Shown: positions 1,762 to 10,500 of the stretch, one piece after another
Layout: the number at the start of each line of letters is the position of its first letter
How positions within the stretch are numbered: the stretch's first letter is position 1
Notes under the pieces: generated by a model
The model's input: the letters and a program-made list of their open reading frames with translations, nothing else
Told to the model about the DNA's origin: nothing
Databases searched by the model: none
DNA from: Flavobacteriales bacterium
Lineage (GTDB): Bacteria; Bacteroidota; Bacteroidia; Flavobacteriales; UBA7312
Assembly (NCBI GenBank): GCA_016779935.1
Contig: JADHMQ010000001.1
Span: 128,369-192,368 of the forward strand
DNA: 64,000 nucleotides
Reading direction: 5' to 3'
Position numbers and translations under genes: made by a program

Positions 1762-3813
1762 ATGAAACAGATAACAACACTAATAGCATTAGCACTAAGT
1801 CTGGGGGTATTCGCACAAGATGTTGCCTTCAAGAAAGGAAATTTCAAAGACGATAAAGACGGTCTAGAAAAGGCTAAAATAAATATCGCAGAGGGCGATG
1901 TTTTCCTCGAGAAAGGCGAGCAAAAAGTATTGGCAATGGTCAATGCCTTTGAGGAATTTGGAGAAGCCTTAACGTTTTATTTACAAGCACAAGACTTTAA
2001 CCCTAGTAATTCGGACTTGAACAGAAAGATAGGACATGCTTACCTCTACACTAATACCCCTTATTTGGCGATGCCTTTCTTGAAAAAGTCCTTAGAGTTG
2101 GGAGGAGACGATTCAGAACCTTTTGTTCATTTCTTATTGGGAAAAGCCTATCAGCTAGAAAGGGATTTTGAAGCGGCAGAACGTGCCTTTAAGAAATATG
2201 GCACTTTGGAAAACCCTAAAAAGCTAGAAGTTTATAAAAAACTAAATAGGAAGCAAATCAAGGAATGTAAGAATGGGGCTGAAATATTTGGTATTAAAAC
2301 GAGGGTATGGGTCGATAATGTGAAAGAGCTAAACTCTCAACAAGACGAGATTGCACCTAGTATTACTGCCGATGGAACAGAGATTATCTTTAACAGTAAC
2401 AAGACGGGCAACTTTGACATTTACACTGCCGAGCGTAAAAAAAGAAAATGGGTGCGTTTATCTTCCGTTAACAGCTTGAATACTGAGGGAGACGATGTTT
2501 CTTCCAGTTTAGCCTATGACGGACAGCGATTGCTACTATTCAAAGATACTGACGGTCAGAGCGATATTTACGAATCCAAACTAAACGGAACGACTTGGGG
2601 AGAGCCTAAACTCAAGATGTCCAAAGTGGTGAATGTGGAAGGTAACGAAACCTTCGCTTCTTATGATCCACAGGATATAAAAGTCTATTTCGTAAGTGAC
2701 GGTGGCTTTGGTGGTGACCAAAACATTAACTTCAGTGGAAAGAAAGATATGGAGGAGAAGTTTTGGGGGCAATCCCAAAGTGCAGGACAAGAGGTTAATA
2801 CCGGTTTCCAAGAAGGCTCGGTTTATATGGCACCAGATGGCAACACCATGTATTTTTGTTCCCAAGGGCATTCTTCCATTGGAGGCTATGACGTCTTTGT
2901 AACGTATAGGAATGAAGAACTTGGCTTGTGGGGTAAACCCATCAATATGGGATATCCCATTAACACTCCATTTGACGAATTATACTTTAGCATTTCTGCT
3001 AATGGTAAGAAAGCCTATTTCGCTTCCAACAGAGACGGTGGAACAGGAGGAATGGATATTTACTGTGCTACCTTTTGGGGAGAACCTAAGAAACCAACTG
3101 TAGCTTCTGAAGATAACCTCATTGCCAGTATTGCTTCACCCATAGAAGATACCTACACACCAGAAACGGTTGAGGTCACGGTAGCCAATAGCCTTACCGT
3201 ATTCAAAGGACGTATTTTGGACGGTCTATTGCAAGAGCCGGTAGAGGCAGAGATTAAGATTTTTGACAATTCAACCGGAGAAGTTTATGCCGTGATGCGT
3301 TCCAACAGTGCAACAGGTAAGTTCCTCTTGTCTTTACCTTCTGGACTTAACTACGGTATTTCGGTAGAAGCAGAAGGCTATTTGTTCCATTCGGAAAACT
3401 TCAATTTGCCTAAAGGTTCGGCATACAATATGATTAACAAAGACATAGAGCTGAAAAACATTGACATAGGCAGTAAGATTGCTCTTAGAAACGTTTTCTT
3501 TGACACTGGCAGGGCTGAGGTAAAAATAGATTCTTACCCAGAGTTAGACCGACTCATTCAGTTGATGACCGATGTACCTAGCCTTAAGATAGAGCTATCC
3601 GGACACACCGATAATGTAGGAGGCAAAGTCGCCAATGAAAGCCTTTCACAGCGAAGAGCCGATGCCGTAAGGCAGTATTTGGTATCGCGTTCTGTAGATG
3701 CTAATCGCGTTACCGCAAAGGGCTATGGCTCTAGCCGACCAGTAGATAGTAACGACACCAAAGAGGGCAGAGCCAACAACAGGCGAACGGAGTTTGAGAT
3801 TACCGCCAATTAA
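1762..3813 (+). CDS. OmpA-family outer-membrane/peptidoglycan-associated protein (TPR, TolB-like repeats and a C-terminal OmpA domain)
   Basis: Signal peptide; repeated '...FaSnR.GG.G..DIY' TolB/WD40-like units; C-terminal 'LRNVFFDTGRAEV...GHTDNVG....N..LSQRRA..V..YL...G' OmpA_C motif. Confidence 0.85.
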   Translation: MKQITTLIALALSLGVFAQDVAFKKGNFKDDKDGLEKAKINIAEGDVFLEKGEQKVLAMVNAFEEFGEALTFYLQAQDFNPSNSDLNRKIGHAYLYTNTPYLAMPFLKKSLELGGDDSEPFVHFLLGKAYQLERDFEAAERAFKKYGTLENPKKLEVYKKLNRKQIKECKNGAEIFGIKTRVWVDNVKELNSQQDEIAPSITADGTEIIFNSNKTGNFDIYTAERKKRKWVRLSSVNSLNTEGDDVSSSLAYDGQRLLLFKDTDGQSDIYESKLNGTTWGEPKLKMSKVVNVEGNETFASYDPQDIKVYFVSDGGFGGDQNINFSGKKDMEEKFWGQSQSAGQEVNTGFQEGSVYMAPDGNTMYFCSQGHSSIGGYDVFVTYRNEELGLWGKPINMGYPINTPFDELYFSISANGKKAYFASNRDGGTGGMDIYCATFWGEPKKPTVASEDNLIASIASPIEDTYTPETVEVTVANSLTVFKGRILDGLLQEPVEAEIKIFDNSTGEVYAVMRSNSATGKFLLSLPSGLNYGISVEAEGYLFHSENFNLPKGSAYNMINKDIELKNIDIGSKIALRNVFFDTGRAEVKIDSYPELDRLIQLMTDVPSLKIELSGHTDNVGGKVANESLSQRRADAVRQYLVSRSVDANRVTAKGYGSSRPVDSNDTKEGRANNRRTEFEITAN

Positions 3814-3855
3814 TACTGTACGACTTAACCTCTCGTTAAAAGCTAAGGCTTAATT

Positions 3856-4503
3856 ATGAAGAACCTCTTATTTGATTTGGACGGTACTATTATAGAACCT
3901 AAGGAAGGCATTTTGAATTCCATACGCCATACTGCCCAGAAAATGGGGGTGGTGGCACCCTCCGATGAAACGCTTCATCAGTTTATAGGACCGCCCATTA
4001 TGGAATCCTTTCAGCATAAGTTAGGACTGACTTATGAGCAAGCCTTAGAAGCGGTGGGTTACTTCAGAAGCTATTACGCCCATACAGGCATACACCAAAA
4101 CGCTCTTTTCCCTTATGTAGACGAATTGCTAAAGGCACTGAAAGTAGAAGGCTATACCTTATTCGTGGCGACTTCTAAACCCACACTTTTTGCCAAAGAA
4201 ATACTCAAAGACCATCAGCTGGACACCCTCTTTGTAGAGATAGTGGGCTGCAATATGGACAATAGCCGCAGCGATAAGGCTGAAATCATAGCTTATATTG
4301 TGGAAAAGTACGGACTAGATGTATCCGAATGCCTGATGATAGGCGATACCAAATACGATATTATTGGGGCTAAGAAACACGCTATGCTATCGGTAGGGGT
4401 GAACTACGGACACGGCGATTTCAGTCAGCACATTCCACAGCATACCGTTGACAGTTGTGAGGAGCTAGAAGTATTAATAAAAAAATACTTTCCATTAGGC
4501 TAA
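3856..4503 (+). CDS. HAD-superfamily hydrolase (phosphoglycolate phosphatase-like, subfamily IA)
   Basis: N-terminal 'LFDLDGTI' HAD motif I, 'ATSK' motif II and 'GDTKYDI' motif IV. Confidence 0.8.
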   Translation: MKNLLFDLDGTIIEPKEGILNSIRHTAQKMGVVAPSDETLHQFIGPPIMESFQHKLGLTYEQALEAVGYFRSYYAHTGIHQNALFPYVDELLKALKVEGYTLFVATSKPTLFAKEILKDHQLDTLFVEIVGCNMDNSRSDKAEIIAYIVEKYGLDVSECLMIGDTKYDIIGAKKHAMLSVGVNYGHGDFSQHIPQHTVDSCEELEVLIKKYFPLG

Positions 4504-4623
4504 AAACCCTATATTTGAGGAAAGCCGAAACCCCTCCTTTACCTTACCATTTTATGCAAGTTTTTTATTGAAGATTGACCCTCGCTAATTTTGGCTTGAG
4601 AAATTATTTTTATTTGAAAAAGC

Positions 4624-5319
4624 ATGAAAAAACTGTACACTCTGCTCTTTATGAGCCTGTGCTTTTTGGCATTTAGCCAAGAGCAATTTCCATCCTTTAT
4701 TGATGTTACCGGCACGGCCGAAATGGAAGTTATACCCGATGAAATTTACATTGCCATAACCCTACGTGAGCGTAGCGGAAACAGAGGCACACAGACGGTG
4801 CAAGAGCAAGAAAACGACCTTAAAGATGCCTTACGTTCCTTAGGCTTAGACCTCAAGCGTTTGGAGCTATCCGATGCCAATGCCGATTACATTTCTATAC
4901 GTTGGTTGAACAAAAAGACCATTAGCCAAAGCAGTTACCGTTTTAAAGCCGAAGACGCCTATATGGTGAGCAAGGTCTTTGAGCAATTGGACAAGCTGAA
5001 CATACAAGACGCCTACATTTCAGAGGTTAGCCATTCCAAGATAAAAGAGTACGAAAAAGAGGTGCGAATAAATGCCATAAAAGACGCTAAAGACCGTGCC
5101 GATTACCTCTTGACTGCCATAGACGAAAGAAGAGGAAAAGCTATGGAAGTGTATGAAAACAGAAGTAGCATACAGGCGGTAAGAAGAAAAAACGCTAGGC
5201 ATCAGGTAGAGAGTAGTATTCACCAAATGGTAGATTTATTCAGTGGGGAAGATAACGGCCTACAATTCCAAAAGATTAAACTCCAAGCTTCGGTATTTGT
5301 GAAGTTTGGGATTGAATAA
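4624..5319 (+). CDS. SIMPL (DUF541) domain periplasmic protein
   Basis: Signal peptide, then an 'I.V.G.AE.EV.PD...I.I.L' start typical of SIMPL/DUF541. Family assignment is from memory. Confidence 0.6.
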   Translation: MKKLYTLLFMSLCFLAFSQEQFPSFIDVTGTAEMEVIPDEIYIAITLRERSGNRGTQTVQEQENDLKDALRSLGLDLKRLELSDANADYISIRWLNKKTISQSSYRFKAEDAYMVSKVFEQLDKLNIQDAYISEVSHSKIKEYEKEVRINAIKDAKDRADYLLTAIDERRGKAMEVYENRSSIQAVRRKNARHQVESSIHQMVDLFSGEDNGLQFQKIKLQASVFVKFGIE

Positions 5320-5380
5320 ACACAGCAACCTTAACAATTCATTTCTGATAGCCCTCGAATAGGAATATTAAAGATGAGAC

Positions 5381-6361
5381 ATGACAAAAACATTAAACAA
5401 AAACTTGCACCTAGCAAAGAAAGGAAAGAAAGATGAGTTTTATACTCAACTGGCGGATATAGAAAATGAGCTTAAACATTACAAAGCACACTTTAAAGGT
5501 AAGGTGGTCTATTGCAATTGTGATGATCCACGCATGAGTAACTTTTTCCATTATTTCTCCTATAATTTTGAAGATTTAGGATTAAAAAAACTCATTTCTA
5601 CCTGCTACCAAAACCAAAACCGAGATTTGTTTAGTTCACATGACTCTGAACGTGCTATATACTTGGAATACCATGGTGACCAAAACAACAATCGTGTTCC
5701 TGATATAGACGAAATTGGCGTACAATACCTTAAAGGCGATGGCGATTTTAGAAGTGCCGAGAGTATAGCACTTTTACAACAAGCCGACATAGTAGTAACC
5801 AATCCGCCCTTTTCATTATTTAGAGAGTACGTGGCACAACTCATACAACACAATAAAAAGTTTTTGATTGTTGGAAACCATAATGCCATAACTTATAAAG
5901 AAATTTTTCCTCATATAAAAGAAGATAGAATTTGGTTAGGTTACAAATATGGTGACATGTCTTTCAAAGTGCCTGTAAATTATGAACCTAGAGAAACTAG
6001 ATTTTGGAAAGATGAAAACGGACAAAAGTGGAGAAGTTTTGGAAATATGTGTTGGTTTACCAACCTAGATATCGCTAAACGCCACGAAGACCTGATTTTA
6101 TACAAAACGTATTCTCCTGAAGAATATCCTAAATACGACAATTACGATGCCATAAACATAAACAAAACCAAAGAAATACCTATGGATTATCCTGGTGCCA
6201 TGGGCGTGCCCATTACCTTTTTGGATAAATACAACCCAGAACAGTTTGAGTTAATAGGTAGAATGACAACAACTAAAAAAGATGAATTCAATTATGGATA
6301 TCCTTACATAAATGGAAAAAGAATTTATGCGAGAATTCTAATCAAAAACAAACGCTTATGA
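5381..6361 (+). CDS. N6-adenine DNA methyltransferase, EcoRI-methylase family
   Basis: N-terminal 'KKGKKDEFYTQ...GKVVYCNCDDP' and catalytic 'VVTNPPFSLFREY' (NPPF motif IV). Its stop overlaps the next gene's start (ATGA at 6358-6361). Confidence 0.75.
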   Translation: MTKTLNKNLHLAKKGKKDEFYTQLADIENELKHYKAHFKGKVVYCNCDDPRMSNFFHYFSYNFEDLGLKKLISTCYQNQNRDLFSSHDSERAIYLEYHGDQNNNRVPDIDEIGVQYLKGDGDFRSAESIALLQQADIVVTNPPFSLFREYVAQLIQHNKKFLIVGNHNAITYKEIFPHIKEDRIWLGYKYGDMSFKVPVNYEPRETRFWKDENGQKWRSFGNMCWFTNLDIAKRHEDLILYKTYSPEEYPKYDNYDAININKTKEIPMDYPGAMGVPITFLDKYNPEQFELIGRMTTTKKDEFNYGYPYINGKRIYARILIKNKRL

Positions 6362-7454
6362 ATATAGAACTGAAAGAAATTACCATTCGGGAACTTACCG
6401 AAGGTTATGTAGATAATCAAGAACAAGGTGTAGTGGGCTATGGTGGAAAATTGGATATTCGCCCTCCATACCAAAGGGAGTTTATCTATAATGAGAAGCA
6501 AAGAGATGCTGTCATTCATACCGTTAGTAAAAACTTTCCTTTGAATGTCATGTATTGGGCAGTTAATAAGGATGGTAATTTTGAGGTGATTGATGGGCAA
6601 CAGCGCACTATTTCCATTTGTCAGTTTGTCAATAAAGAGTTTTCAGTGGTTTATGGCGATATTCCACAACATAGGATGTTCAATAATCTTCAAGATGATG
6701 AACAAGAACAAATCTTGAACTATAAATTAATGGTCTATTTCTGTGAAGGTACAGATAGCGAAAAATTAGATTGGTTTAAGGTTATCAATATTGCTGGAGC
6801 AAAGTTAACTGAACAAGAGTTGAGAAATGCTGTTTATTCTGGCTCTTGGCTTAGTGATGAAAACGCTATTTCAGTAAAGTCGGTTGTCCGGCTCAATCAA
6901 TTGGTAGTAACTACTTAAACGGTTCAGCAATACGACAAGACTATTTAGAAACAGCTATTGATTGGTTGTCTGAAGGAAATATTGAGGTGTATATGGCAAA
7001 TCACCAAAACGACCCCAACGCTAACGAATTGTGGTTGTATTTTCAGTCGGTTATTAATTGGGTGCAAGTGGTGTTTCCAAACTATAGAAGAGAGATGAAA
7101 GGCCTAGAATGGGGTGTGTTGTATAACAAATACAAAGACCACGATTTTAATTCTGCCGAATTGGAAAAAGAGGTGTCTCGTCTCATGCTAGACGATGATA
7201 TTAGCAAAAGAGGTATTTATCCATATCTCATTACGGGCAAAGAAAAGCACTTGAGTATTCGAGCATTTTCAGAGGGGCAAAAGCGTAAAAGCTACGAAAG
7301 ACAAAAAGGAATTTGCCCTATCTGTAAGGAACACTTTGAAATTGGTCAAATGGAAGCCGACCATATTACACCATGGCACGAAGGGGGTAAAACCATTGAT
7401 GAAAATTGTCAAATGCTCTGCAAAGAAGATAACCGAAGAAAAGGAGGGAGGTAG
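6358..7454 (+). pseudogene. DUF262 (ParB-like, DGQQR motif) + C-terminal HNH nuclease protein, split by a -1 frameshift in an A-run near 6860-6863
   Basis: ORF 6358-6918 carries 'VIDGQQRT'. ORF 6966-7454 carries the HNH 'EADHITPWHEGGKTIDENCQMLCKEDNRRKG'. Shifting frame at GATGAAAACGC gives a continuous '...SGSWLSD(E)KRYFSKVGCPAQSIGSNYLNGSAIRQDYLETAIDWLSEGN...'. Confidence 0.8.
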
Positions 7455-7458
7455 GAAA

Positions 7459-8700
7459 ATGAATAATATAATTTATAATGAGGACGCAAGAGAACTCTTA
7501 TCTATAGTTGATGAAAAGATAAAAGTAAAGACAACAATTACATCACCTCCCTACTATGATATGAAAGATTACGGCTCAAGTAATCAGGTTGGATATGGAC
7601 AAAGTTATGAGGAGTATCTAAATGATCTTAGTTTAATTTTTGAAAGTGTGTTTAAGATAACAGAGGAAAATGGCACACTTTGGATAATTATAGACACATT
7701 TAAGCGAAATAATCAAGTTGTCACTTTACCATTTGACCTCGCAAATAAATTAAAAGAAATTGGATGGTTGCTTCAGGATATCATAATATGGAAAAAAGAT
7801 AAAACAGTTCCTTGGTCTAACAATGGTTTTATGCAAAGAAAATTTGAATACATACTTTTTTTTTCAAAATCAAAAAAAATTAAAATTAATAAAGACAGAG
7901 TTAGAGTTTTTGATATGACTAAATTAAAAAAATGGTGGATTAAATTTCCTGAAAGGTATAACCCAAATGGGAAAGCCTTAGATGAAGTATGGGAGTTTCC
8001 AATACCAACTCAAGGCTCTTGGGGAAAGGAATACATAAGACATTTTTGTCCTTTACCGCAAAGTATGGTAGCAACAATGATTCAAATAAGCTCAGATGAA
8101 AATGACACTATTTTAGATCCTTTTGCAGGGACAGGCACAGTACTTTCACAATCTGCATATATGAAACGGAATTATATCGGTTTTGAATTAAATAAAAAAT
8201 ACATTTCAATGTTCGAGGAGTATTTAGAAAAAACTTTTTCTAAATATAGAAATGAATATGAGATATTATCTGAAAGCAAAGATCAAAGAAATTTTGAAAA
8301 GCAAATTCTCAATTTAAGATCTTTAAAATTTGCCAGAGTACTAATAAAATGTATTGAAAGTAAAACAGAGTTAAATAATTTCAAAATTTTTGTTACTCCC
8401 AAAAAAGTAAGTAAGCTAAAACACAAACTACTTAAAGTAGAATATCAAATTATTGGACAAATAGATGAAGCTGTTTTTATGAAAGAAATAAAAGAGTTAA
8501 TCGACAAAACACCATTATCGAAATTTGGTATTGAACCAGTGTTCAAATTTATAGAGTTTAAAAAATTCAACAAAAAGCATCATTATGGCTACACCAAATC
8601 TAATACTTATTCATTTGTAAAAAACTCCAATCTTAATTCCCAGAAAATAAGAGTTGTAAGCAAAATTTGTGTTGACTTAAATGAAAATGACTACCTATAA
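7459..8700 (+). CDS. Beta-class (N4-C or N6-A) DNA methyltransferase with uncharacterised C-terminal extension
   Basis: Motif IV 'TITSPPYYD' precedes motif I 'LDPFAGTGTV', which is the beta order. I chose the ATG at 7459, 4 nt after the HNH stop and preceded by a GGAGG-like sequence. The longer ORF from 7336 overlaps the HNH gene. Confidence 0.8.
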   Translation: MNNIIYNEDARELLSIVDEKIKVKTTITSPPYYDMKDYGSSNQVGYGQSYEEYLNDLSLIFESVFKITEENGTLWIIIDTFKRNNQVVTLPFDLANKLKEIGWLLQDIIIWKKDKTVPWSNNGFMQRKFEYILFFSKSKKIKINKDRVRVFDMTKLKKWWIKFPERYNPNGKALDEVWEFPIPTQGSWGKEYIRHFCPLPQSMVATMIQISSDENDTILDPFAGTGTVLSQSAYMKRNYIGFELNKKYISMFEEYLEKTFSKYRNEYEILSESKDQRNFEKQILNLRSLKFARVLIKCIESKTELNNFKIFVTPKKVSKLKHKLLKVEYQIIGQIDEAVFMKEIKELIDKTPLSKFGIEPVFKFIEFKKFNKKHHYGYTKSNTYSFVKNSNLNSQKIRVVSKICVDLNENDYL

Positions 8701-8709
8701 ATTTTTCGT

Positions 8710-10500
8710 ATGGTAAAAAGAAAAACTAGAAAAAAGACTACTAGAAATAAACTTTCTCCACAAGAAAAAGCTTTAAGGAAAGAAAAGAGAGACCAAAGAA
8801 ATGAAATATCAACTATTTTAAAAAATATTGGATTTCAAAGATTGCCATACATAGATGGAAAACACTTTGAGTATGATAATCGAAAAACGGAAATGGATGA
8901 TATTTTTATAAATGAAAATATCATCCTACTTGTGGAGTATACTATTGGCAATCCAAAATATCATTTATTTACAAAGAAAATATTCTATGATAAAGTAAAT
9001 TCTAACAAAAGAGCTTTTATTGCTTTTTTATTAAAAGAAGAAAAATTAAAAAGCTTCAAAAAATATTATGATGAGAATATTGAAGGAATATATTCACAAA
9101 ATGAATTAAGATTACAAATCTTATACTGTTCAAAAAAAACCATCTCAGAGGAGCATAAAAATACCGTGTCAAATGTATATTTTTTTGATTATCACATTGT
9201 ACAATATTTTAAGAGCTTAACTAAAGCTATTAAAAAATCTAGTAAATATGAATTTATGGAATTCCTTGAAATTCCATTCGAAGATTTTGGTTCAAATATT
9301 AAAAATTCTTCTTCAAGGAATTCACAAACCTTTAAAGGCAATATTTTGCCCGAAGAAAAAAGTAAATTTGACGAAGGATATAAGATTGTTTCATTTTATA
9401 TAGATGCAGAATCTCTATTGAGAAGATCTTATGTTTTAAGACAAAATGGTTGGAGAGACATAGAAAATGTTGGACATTATCAGCGCATGCTAGAAAAAAG
9501 TAAAATATCTAGTATGCGAAGGTATTTATCTGAAAGAAATAGAGTTTTTATTAATAATATAATAGCTACAATATCTACAGATAAAATCAAACTTTATGAT
9601 AAAGACAATAATCACTTGATAATTGGTAATAATGGTCAGTTTATAGGAGATAATTCAACAGAAATATCACCTACGAGAATAGAAATTAACGATTCATGCA
9701 ATATAATTGGTTTAATTGATGGTCAGCATAGAACATATGCCTACCATGAAGGGGATGATCAATTTGAAGATAAAATTTCAGAACTAAGAACCGTTCAAAA
9801 TTTATTAGTTACGGGAATATTATTCCCTAAGAATGAGACCAAAGTAAATAGATTGAAGTTCGAGGCTAAACTTTTTTTAGAAATTAATACTAATCAGAAA
9901 AATGTTCCATCTCAAATTACTCAAGAAATTGAACTAATGACAAGTCCTTTTTCTACTATTGCTATTGGAAAAAGAATAATGTTAGGTTTAAATAAAAGTG
10001 GTCCTCTCGGAAATATGATTGAACAATACTGGTATGAAAAAGGGAAAGTTAAAACTGCTTCAATTGTTAGTTTTGGTTTAAGACCACTAGTAAAAATTGA
10101 GGACTTAAAAGCAAGGGATAGTCTTTTTGTCATTTGGAATAATCCCGATAAATATAAATTGAAGCAAAAAGATAATAATGAGTCTGAACTACTTAATGAA
10201 TACATAAAATTTTGTGTTGAGAAAATCAGAGATTTATTAATCGCTTTAAAAATTAATTTAGACGATGATCAATGGGAAACATATAGTCACGGAAATCCCA
10301 GAGGATTACTTTCAGTGATATTTGTAAATGGCGTATTGAATGTTTTAAGATTATTAATTAAACATAACAAAGTTTCAACATTAGAAAATTATAAAATAAA
10401 ATTAGAAAACATTAATAAATTTGATTTCAAACAATTTAAATCAAGTCAATATAGAAAACTAGGAGAAGCTATTTTTAATCAATACTTCCAACTTGAATGA
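8710..10500 (+). CDS. DGQHR-domain (DndB-like, ParB/Srx superfamily) protein with a basic tail and an unknown N-terminal domain
   Basis: 'IIGLIDGQHRTYAYHEG' followed by 'FLEINTNQKNV' resembles the DGQHR/DndB signature. The N-terminus is highly basic (KRKTRKKTTRNK). The gene is very AT-rich and starts 9 nt after the methylase stop. Confidence 0.7.
   Translation: MVKRKTRKKTTRNKLSPQEKALRKEKRDQRNEISTILKNIGFQRLPYIDGKHFEYDNRKTEMDDIFINENIILLVEYTIGNPKYHLFTKKIFYDKVNSNKRAFIAFLLKEEKLKSFKKYYDENIEGIYSQNELRLQILYCSKKTISEEHKNTVSNVYFFDYHIVQYFKSLTKAIKKSSKYEFMEFLEIPFEDFGSNIKNSSSRNSQTFKGNILPEEKSKFDEGYKIVSFYIDAESLLRRSYVLRQNGWRDIENVGHYQRMLEKSKISSMRRYLSERNRVFINNIIATISTDKIKLYDKDNNHLIIGNNGQFIGDNSTEISPTRIEINDSCNIIGLIDGQHRTYAYHEGDDQFEDKISELRTVQNLLVTGILFPKNETKVNRLKFEAKLFLEINTNQKNVPSQITQEIELMTSPFSTIAIGKRIMLGLNKSGPLGNMIEQYWYEKGKVKTASIVSFGLRPLVKIEDLKARDSLFVIWNNPDKYKLKQKDNNESELLNEYIKFCVEKIRDLLIALKINLDDDQWETYSHGNPRGLLSVIFVNGVLNVLRLLIKHNKVSTLENYKIKLENINKFDFKQFKSSQYRKLGEAIFNQYFQLE

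Follow-up and report, generated by a model that had tools for sequence, protein, structure and literature searches.

In a stretch of 64,000 nucleotides (nt) from the genome of a Flavobacteriales bacterium (GTDB lineage Bacteria; Bacteroidota; Bacteroidia; Flavobacteriales; UBA7312), which we call the window (NCBI GenBank assembly GCA_016779935.1, contig JADHMQ010000001.1, positions 128,369 to 192,368 of the forward strand), two adjacent genes on the plus strand, at 7459-8700 and 8710-10500, probably form a restriction-modification module whose endonuclease unites, in one polypeptide, a PD-(D/E)xK domain and a ParB-type domain that binds nucleoside triphosphates (NTPs). The first gene encodes a DNA methyltransferase (methylase). 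The second, with an ATG start 9 nt past the stop codon of the first, encodes a protein of 596 amino acids (aa), a putative restriction endonuclease subunit, which a first-pass annotation made without database searches had described as a stand-alone DGQHR/DndB-like protein with a novel N-terminal domain.

The 596-aa protein belongs to the DGQHR domain family, yet it is neither DndB nor DpdB. The NCBIfam model of the domain, TIGR03187, matches residues 228-416 with 67.9 bits (E = 1.2e-18), above its curated cutoff of 58.85 bits, and the motifs listed for the family, i.e., a QR pair, the DGQHR pentapeptide and FxxxN (PMC4619093), are all present: QR at residues 258-259, the pentapeptide at D337-R341 within the peptide LIDGQHRTYAYHEG, and FLEIN at 389-393 (F389 to N393) within FLEINTNQKNV. 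We place this ParB/Srx-fold domain at residues 225-416 (9382-9957, plus strand). Residue conservation was counted over 81 full-length members of the family, with identities down to 29%. Q258 and R259, D337, Q339, H340 and R341, and F389 and N393 are found in all 81, and G338 in 79. In the conservation profile of the protein the DGQHR domain ranks highest, and every family-invariant residue is present in the window copy. The first-pass placement of the protein in the DndB-like branch of the ParB/Srx fold is therefore borne out, with shifted boundaries: the domain had been put at about residues 330-420, behind an N-terminal part of about 300 aa, and it begins at about residue 225, behind an extra domain of about 205 aa.

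Since these motifs are invariant and nucleotide binding by such domains is documented in the literature, we infer that the DGQHR domain binds NTP and that it probably hydrolyzes it. In the ParB/Srx superfamily the nucleotide phosphates are contacted by a DGxxR-type motif (PMC12065111), DpdB is a ParB-like ATPase (PMC12839542, citing PMC10164549), and a DndB-like protein binds both ATP and GTP (bioRxiv 10.1101/2025.10.10.680097). In GmrSD and SspE a ParB-like DUF262 domain switches on the fused nuclease through its NTPase activity (PMC12065111). The DGQHR part of our structure model has lower confidence, with a predicted local distance difference test (pLDDT) score below 50 at residues 338-349.

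The family is large, with more than 965 proteins at E <= 0.001 and a typical length of 585-607 aa; its best 120 members are 533-607 aa long and 63-100% identical to the query. In the source annotation they are called only “DGQHR domain-containing protein” or “hypothetical protein”, and the family is not described in the literature and the profile libraries that we searched (Pfam, NCBIfam, PADLOC and PHROGs). The matches of the 596-aa protein in PHROGs were all insignificant, and when the PDB was searched by sequence, neither the protein itself nor the family profile had a match, even at E <= 10.

In front of the DGQHR domain there is a family-specific domain, residues 17-205 (8758-9324, plus strand), with a restriction-endonuclease-like fold of the PD-(D/E)xK type. 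The AlphaFold2 model of this domain (pLDDT 85.5, predicted template modeling score 0.80) consists of a helix at 17-40, strands at 52-55, 58-61, 64-68 and 71-78, three helices across 82-124 (one of them at 82-98), strands at 134-141 and 156-159 and a helix from 161, and it has the alpha-beta-beta-beta-alpha-beta core of the PD-(D/E)xK superfamily. When it was compared with the PDB by Foldseek, nearly all of the top 50 matches were PD-(D/E)xK nucleases, with a best E of 1e-3, probabilities of 0.97-0.98 and template modeling (TM) scores of only 0.3-0.4. They include Bax1 (E = 1e-3, probability 0.97), the restriction enzymes R.BspD6I and BstEII, the R2 restriction-like endonuclease, Cdn1, Can2, AF1548, Card1/VC1899, McrC, XisH and the cap-snatching endonucleases of arenaviruses and bunyaviruses. 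Because the TM-scores are low, we assign the domain to the fold and not to any of its subfamilies. With the full-length model, Foldseek searches of the PDB and BFVD gave only weak matches (E >= 0.008), made up of the same set of PD-(D/E)xK nucleases, a few GmrSD_N/ParB-like proteins and restriction endonucleases. No confident ParB-fold match was found in these two databases, and this probably stems from the low-confidence modeling of the DGQHR core.

The domain is specific to this protein architecture. A profile built from it had 290 matches among 1.84 billion representative proteins; every one of them is N-terminal and the full-length proteins among them measure 523-661 aa, the others having the look of fragments. 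It is preceded by a tail rich in lysine and arginine, residues 1-16 (8710-8757, plus strand), which is predicted to be disordered (pLDDT below 50 for residues 1-11) and probably makes non-specific contacts with DNA. The first-pass annotation had already remarked on the extreme basicity of this tail, and it is basic in all homologues.

A putative active site spans residues 61-89 (8890-8976, plus strand), with the pattern [E/D]61-x-D63, N70, E76-x-T78, H85 and K89. Residues 61-80 are the most conserved block of 20 residues in the N-terminal half of the protein, and within the N-terminal domain the conserved polar residues cluster at the canonical catalytic positions. D63 is conserved in 80 of the 81 members, N70 in 79, E76 in 81, T78 in 78, H85 in 81 and K89 in 78, and E181, farther along the domain, in 80. 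In the model, D63 lies directly before the strand 64-68 and E76-x-T78 in the partner strand 71-78, a placement that reproduces the canonical “D ... (D/E)xK” geometry with the lysine replaced. Both K89 and H85 sit on the helix that follows the E76/T78 strand, and one or both of them may take the role of the missing lysine. A residue other than lysine is also found at this position in BglII and BamHI. These results agree well with the first-pass annotation, which had taken the segment “DDIF...VEYT” for a degenerate PD-(D/E)xK core without the canonical K and had proposed structure prediction and Foldseek as a check: the fold came out as that of a PD-(D/E)xK nuclease, with the two acidic residues at the expected places, a threonine where the lysine should be, and two nearly invariant candidate substitutes on the next helix. 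The Mrr-like core that it had offered as the other option is not supported, no nuclease profile of Pfam being matched. A side observation at the DNA level is an inverted repeat at 8895-8926, GGATGATATTTT...AAAATATCATCC, with a stem of 12 bp. It lies inside the coding sequence, exactly on the conserved MDDIFINENII motif, and may have arisen by chance from AT-rich codons.

The gene at 7459-8700 (plus strand) encodes a beta-class N6/N4 amino-methyltransferase of 413 aa counted from the ATG at 7459, although the mechanically called open reading frame (ORF) opens at a TTG at 7336. It matches PF01555 (N6_N4_Mtase) with E = 2.3e-43 and the PADLOC model MTase_II with E = 1.1e-47, and has the catalytic motif SPPY at residue 29. 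Given this motif, which is common to 10 of the 11 partner methylases examined, the product is probably N4-methylcytosine; the closest solved structures are M.MboIIA and N4-cytosine methylases. The methylases that accompany the DGQHR protein are of three types: long (about 410-440 aa), short (about 300-335 aa, with no more than 24-28% identity to the methylase of the window) and a single unrelated enzyme at locus L026. In the long ones the catalytic core is followed by about 150 further residues, conserved among them, at the C-terminus (residues ~260-413 in the window). This extension, which the short ones do not have, could serve to recognize the target or to contact the nuclease.

The association of the two genes was analyzed by scanning one genome per species, which gave 41 loci, and clustering all the ORFs in them. 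Exactly two gene families recur over the 41 loci and the window, the methylase and the DGQHR protein. A third conserved gene was not found over the 41 loci, the next commonest cluster being present in just three. The methylase immediately precedes the DGQHR gene, on the same strand, at 37 loci, and a methylase is present within 5 kb at 40. The gaps between the two genes range from about -77 to +117 nt and are typically an overlap of 1-20 nt or a spacing of 6-14 nt. The identities of the two proteins to their window counterparts co-vary (r = 0.915 over 38 loci), and the pairing is still present at 31-37% identity, for example on a Rhizobium plasmid and in the Akkermansia phage Chantilly. The methylase is an almost obligatory partner of the DGQHR protein, and the pair is a conserved two-gene unit. 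For this reason the label “stand-alone” is misleading, even if the upstream amino-methyltransferase had been correctly seen at first pass (PF01555). The same annotation had counted homologues usually occurring without a methylase as evidence against its proposal, and we found the opposite, a methylase within 5 kb at 40 of the 41 loci and, in addition, on the plasmid and in the phage.

The exceptions to the usual arrangement are few. At L026 a different methylase, fused to a helix-turn-helix (HTH) domain and with a DPPF motif, is divergently transcribed within 5 kb of the DGQHR gene, and L023 is cut by the end of its contig. At L027 and L036, where the members of the family are divergent, the methylase heads a longer same-strand operon in which the DGQHR gene comes last. 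The first (4423-9728) is a same-strand operon that starts with a short SPPY methylase and also holds an ORF resembling, by eye, a GHKL-type (histidine-kinase/HSP90-like) ATPase and an unknown protein of 300 aa. The second (2605-9710) likewise starts with a short SPPY methylase, followed by a split ORF that looks like an SNF2-type helicase by eye and by other unknowns. These two loci may be more complex defense systems that have recruited the same DGQHR protein.

The methylase and DGQHR pair is mobile. Over the 41 loci it was found in Bacteroidota, Calditrichota, Fusobacterium, Bacilli, Desulfobacterota (Desulfurivibrio), alpha-, beta- and gamma-proteobacteria and Chloroflexi. Both genes are carried by the Rhizobium plasmid. 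In the temperate Akkermansia phage Chantilly (ON453895.1; L042, 1519-4625) they are convergent and lie beside an integrase and a repressor. In the gut bacterium Bacteroides xylanisolvens (L045, 4734-7785) the pair adjoins RteC/HTH_17 genes and an AbiEi/AbiEii pair, surroundings that hint at the cargo of a conjugative transposon, and this copy represents a 90%-identity cluster of 585 member sequences. Three loci (L006, L037 and L040, at about 7950-9750 in each) have an intact methylase next to a DGQHR gene that has fallen apart into two or three ORFs. This is the usual pattern of restriction-gene decay. The tight linkage with a methylase, the lack of any third gene, the horizontal spread and the repeated pseudogenization of the DGQHR gene together argue for a restriction-modification cassette in which the DGQHR gene is the toxic one.

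The rest of the 596-aa protein, residues 417-596 (9958-10497, plus strand), is modeled as an all-helical domain with pLDDT mostly at 85-96, and has no match in the profile libraries searched. Its invariant or near-invariant residues include W522, S579 and R547 (66/81). In DndB, GmrSD and SspE, too, a helical domain comes after the ParB domain (PMC12065111), and the one here is possibly its counterpart. DndB has been described as ParB plus HEPN (PMC3632139), and a HEPN-type active site was considered here and rejected: the R-x4-H motif has no constant histidine (N, K, S or H occurs at position 552), so that by sequence an active HEPN site is unlikely. In the conservation profile of the whole protein no hypervariable target-recognition segment stands out.

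Taken as a whole, the two genes most likely act as a restriction-modification system. The methylase would mark the host DNA at a specific site, probably as N4-methylcytosine, and the 596-aa protein would be the restriction subunit, which probably cuts DNA without this mark. Its N-terminal domain would be a divergent PD-(D/E)xK nuclease in which D63 and E76 bind the metal and T78 stands in place of the usual lysine, whose function would probably come from K89 and/or H85 on the next helix. The DGQHR and C-terminal helical domains would bind NTP and DNA, and gate or position the nuclease on unmethylated DNA. Because the partner methylases have been exchanged for unrelated enzymes, the nuclease probably recognizes DNA on its own, in the manner of Type II enzymes. 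A Type III-like reliance on the methylase for DNA recognition was also considered, and is unlikely given that unrelated methylases have replaced the partner. As to the two options left by the first-pass annotation, a modification-sensing or a modification-excluded nuclease, the second fits better, that is, a restriction enzyme of the classical kind that its own methylase blocks.

Several points weigh against this reading, and the first group of them concerns the nuclease. The Foldseek support for the N-terminal domain is at fold level only (E >= 1e-3, TM-scores of 0.3-0.4). Nuclease sequence profiles (Pfam, searched also with 26 members) match neither this domain nor the whole protein, and the Pfam scan of the 26 N-terminal domains at E <= 10 gave scattered chance matches with no nuclease family among them. 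The PADLOC models of Type II restriction endonucleases (REases) do not recognize the protein. The third position of the catalytic motif is T78 in 78 of the 81 members, i.e., the canonical K of (D/E)xK is absent. Finally, in the Menshen protein NsnA the REase-fold domains fused in front of ParB-like domains are taken for DNA binders without activity (PMC12065111). A rival reading is that the protein is no PD-(D/E)xK enzyme but a sensor-effector of the GmrSD, SspE or Menshen NsnA type, in which the REase-fold domain only reads DNA (e.g., its methylation state), the methylase still serves for self-protection, and the effector is the ParB-fold DGQHR domain, acting as a nickase or an NTP hydrolase. 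NsnA-like proteins share the domain order, with dead N-terminal REase-fold readers, a ParB-like and a helical domain (PMC12065111), and both DNA nicking and NTP hydrolysis are possible for ParB/Srx proteins (PMC12839542, PMC10853773). The loss of the lysine and the fact that conservation is highest in the DGQHR domain also speak for it. We nevertheless consider such a sensor-effector unlikely, since the acidic residues of the metal site together with H85 and K89 are kept in 78-81 of the 81 members, whereas dead REase domains normally lose them. Besides, the protein has no match to the NsnA, DUF262 or GmrSD profiles, and partners like NsnB and NsnC are not conserved over the loci.

The remaining objections to a restriction-modification module come from the other DGQHR systems and from one locus. 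In the known ones, Dnd and Dpd, the DGQHR protein is on the modification and not on the restriction side. In L022 (116-3782), from a rumen Prevotellaceae metagenome bin, the methylase is without its first ~143 residues, SPPY included, and is fused in frame to an AAA-ATPase-like sequence, next to an intact DGQHR protein with all key residues present. This locus is either a metagenome assembly chimera or a counter-example to toxicity, with a nuclease gene that survives without a neighboring methylase. Both facts would suit a protein that is an accessory or a regulator of the methylase and no restriction factor, comparable to DndB, which represses the dnd operon, or to DpdB, the ATPase that aids DpdA. 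All characterized DGQHR proteins act on the modification side, DndB as a transcriptional regulator (PMC4507180) and DpdB as an ATPase for preQ0 insertion (PMC12839542), and here too the DGQHR gene is downstream of the methylase in the same operon. However, beta-class methylases of such kind act alone, and a dedicated helper should have stayed with one partner, while at least three types of methylase are found (long, short and the divergent HTH-fused DPPF enzyme). The conserved nuclease-like active site would be left without a role, and the repeated pseudogenization of the DGQHR gene, with the L022 methylase as one possible exception, fits a toxic gene and not a helper. An accessory function is slightly less likely again than a sensor-effector, and the restriction-modification module remains the reading that we favor.

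A more specific version of this module can be put forward only tentatively, namely that it is the first restriction-modification system with an endonuclease driven by a ParB-fold (DGQHR) nucleotide switch and not by a helicase or AAA+ motor. In analogy to the action of CTP on ParB clamps, NTP bound at the DGQHR domain would make the enzyme close or dimerize on DNA, and this step would allow the non-canonical PD-(D/E)xK domain, with D63, E76 and a lysine provided by K89 of the helix, to cut unmethylated DNA.

In the window, the two genes are at the end of a four-gene array at 5381-10500, all on the plus strand and with the DGQHR gene last, that lies between the housekeeping genes SIMPL and DUF2461. 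Its guanine plus cytosine (GC) content is 0.27-0.35 against 0.38-0.46 in the flanks, and this low-GC island of restriction-modification genes was apparently acquired by horizontal transfer. The upstream flank is composed of housekeeping genes (TPR, OmpA/PD40, HAD and SIMPL) and so is the downstream one (DUF2461, EamA, MeaB, methylmalonyl-CoA mutase, aldehyde dehydrogenase, a type IX secretion system (T9SS) plug protein and NQR). No dnd or dpd genes were found from ~8 kb upstream to ~12 kb downstream of the DGQHR gene, just as the first-pass annotation had stated. It had also named the methylase as the only partner. A second restriction-modification module is located directly upstream of the pair, at 5381-7454 (plus strand). 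A scan for sigma-70 promoters and terminators, which does not extend to Bacteroidota promoters, found sites no more frequent than in shuffled sequence.

The second module consists of an EcoRI-like adenine methylase at 5381-6361 (plus strand; PF13651, E = 1e-141), whose stop overlaps the start of the next gene, and a frameshifted DUF262(GmrSD_N)/HNH endonuclease in two ORFs on the same strand, 6358-6918 and 6966-7454 (PF03235, E = 4.4e-20, in the first; PF01844, E = 2.1e-12). The two ORFs match positions 1-168 and 215-370, respectively, of the PADLOC model REase_II PDLC03418, and the switch of frame is near a run of A at ~6855-6861; the gene may be a pseudogene, contain a sequencing error or have a phase-variable tract. 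The PADLOC NsnA model also matches the DUF262 ORF. A profile comparison between the DGQHR protein and this DUF262 protein aligned only an 11-residue DGQxR motif, with a probability of 4%. The presence of a DUF262/HNH gene in the same island, and the fact that the ParB-like DUF262 nucleases GmrSD, BrxU and SspE are modification-dependent (PMC4619093, PMC12065111), might suggest that the 596-aa protein is a modification-dependent, Type IV-like nuclease directed against foreign modified DNA, with the methylase unrelated or loosely associated. We regard this as very improbable: the linkage to the methylase is near-universal and tight (gaps typically from -20 to +14 nt; r = 0.92), and Type IV enzymes need no cognate methylase and would be put at risk by one.

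The biochemical role of the DGQHR domain in Dnd and Dpd is still debated, with a regulator, an ATPase and a nuclease all having been proposed, and both are systems of many components. A minimal two-gene system with an ordinary methylase could provide an easy experimental model for a DGQHR/ParB-type nucleotide switch working beside a nuclease. If the enzyme is indeed an NTP-gated restriction enzyme, restriction-modification biology would gain a new architecture and possibly new specificities. If in addition the nucleotide switch operates as outlined, the pair would represent a new class of NTP-gated two-gene restriction-modification systems, and the DGQHR domain would acquire a direct role in restriction and not in modification. 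The family is common on mobile elements of gut Bacteroides and is found in an Akkermansia prophage, and for that reason it is a likely barrier to gene transfer and genetic manipulation in these bacteria.

Among the known systems, GmrSD, BrxU and SspE are similar in that a single chain joins a DNA nuclease and a helical middle domain to a ParB/Srx-fold domain, which has a DGQxR nucleotide-binding motif, and they are also horizontally mobile residents of defense islands. However, their ParB-like domain is DUF262 and here it is of the DGQHR type, and their nuclease is HNH/DUF1524 and C-terminal, whereas here it is PD-(D/E)xK-like and N-terminal. The pairing with a methylase here implies unmodified and not modified DNA as the target. 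The 596-aa protein gave no match to PF03235, PF07510 or HNH at E <= 0.01, and none to the PADLOC models of GmrSD, BrxU and SspE. With DndB and DpdB it shares the DGQHR domain, the QR, DGQHR and FxxxN motifs and the helical C-terminal region that follows. It differs from them by the nuclease-like N-terminal domain of ~205 aa and by a partner that is a simple DNA methylase. Orthology with DndB was rejected, with 24.2 bits against a cutoff of 29.1 for PF14072 (residues 257-347 only), 35.7 against 450 for TIGR04172 and no dndCDE nearby. The same applies to DpdB, with 24 bits against 300 for NF041060, 25 bits for the PADLOC DpdB model and no neighbor resembling dpdA or tRNA-guanine transglycosylase (TGT) in the window or the 41 loci.

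The domain order of Menshen NsnA (PMC12065111), an REase-fold (“PS-REase”) domain followed by a ParB-like and a helical domain, is the same as here. NsnA, in contrast, has DUF262 as its ParB-like domain and REase domains without active-site residues, while the acidic residues are conserved in the DGQHR family. It acts together with NsnB (an ABC ATPase) and NsnC, and not with a methylase. The 596-aa protein has no PADLOC match to NsnA, and no conserved ABC-ATPase or NsnB/C partner was found over the 41 loci. Type III systems (Mod plus Res) resemble the pair in the order of methylase then nuclease, in that Mod is a beta-class N6/N4 methylase, and in a restriction subunit that combines an NTPase and a PD-(D/E)xK nuclease. 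Their NTPase, though, is a superfamily 2 (SF2) helicase and here it has a ParB fold, and the partner methylases here have been swapped for unrelated ones. Helicase and ResIII families gave no match to the 596-aa protein in Pfam, NCBIfam or PADLOC.

Classical Type II restriction-modification systems with PD-(D/E)xK endonucleases, of which R.BspD6I and BstEII are examples among the fold matches, share with the pair the tight, mobile cassette of methylase and nuclease, which often decays by loss of the nuclease, as well as the nuclease fold. The differences are in the enzyme: about two thirds of the 596-aa protein are a ParB-type NTP-binding module plus a helical domain, a combination that is not known from Type II enzymes, and its catalytic lysine is off the canonical position. 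With the NTP-binding motifs conserved, independence from NTP is doubtful, and an NTP requirement, which is plausible, would place the enzyme outside the Type II definition. The general theme is already known; what defines the family is the set of a private PD-(D/E)xK-like domain N-terminal to DGQHR and a two-gene cassette with a beta-class SPPY methylase as the sole partner.

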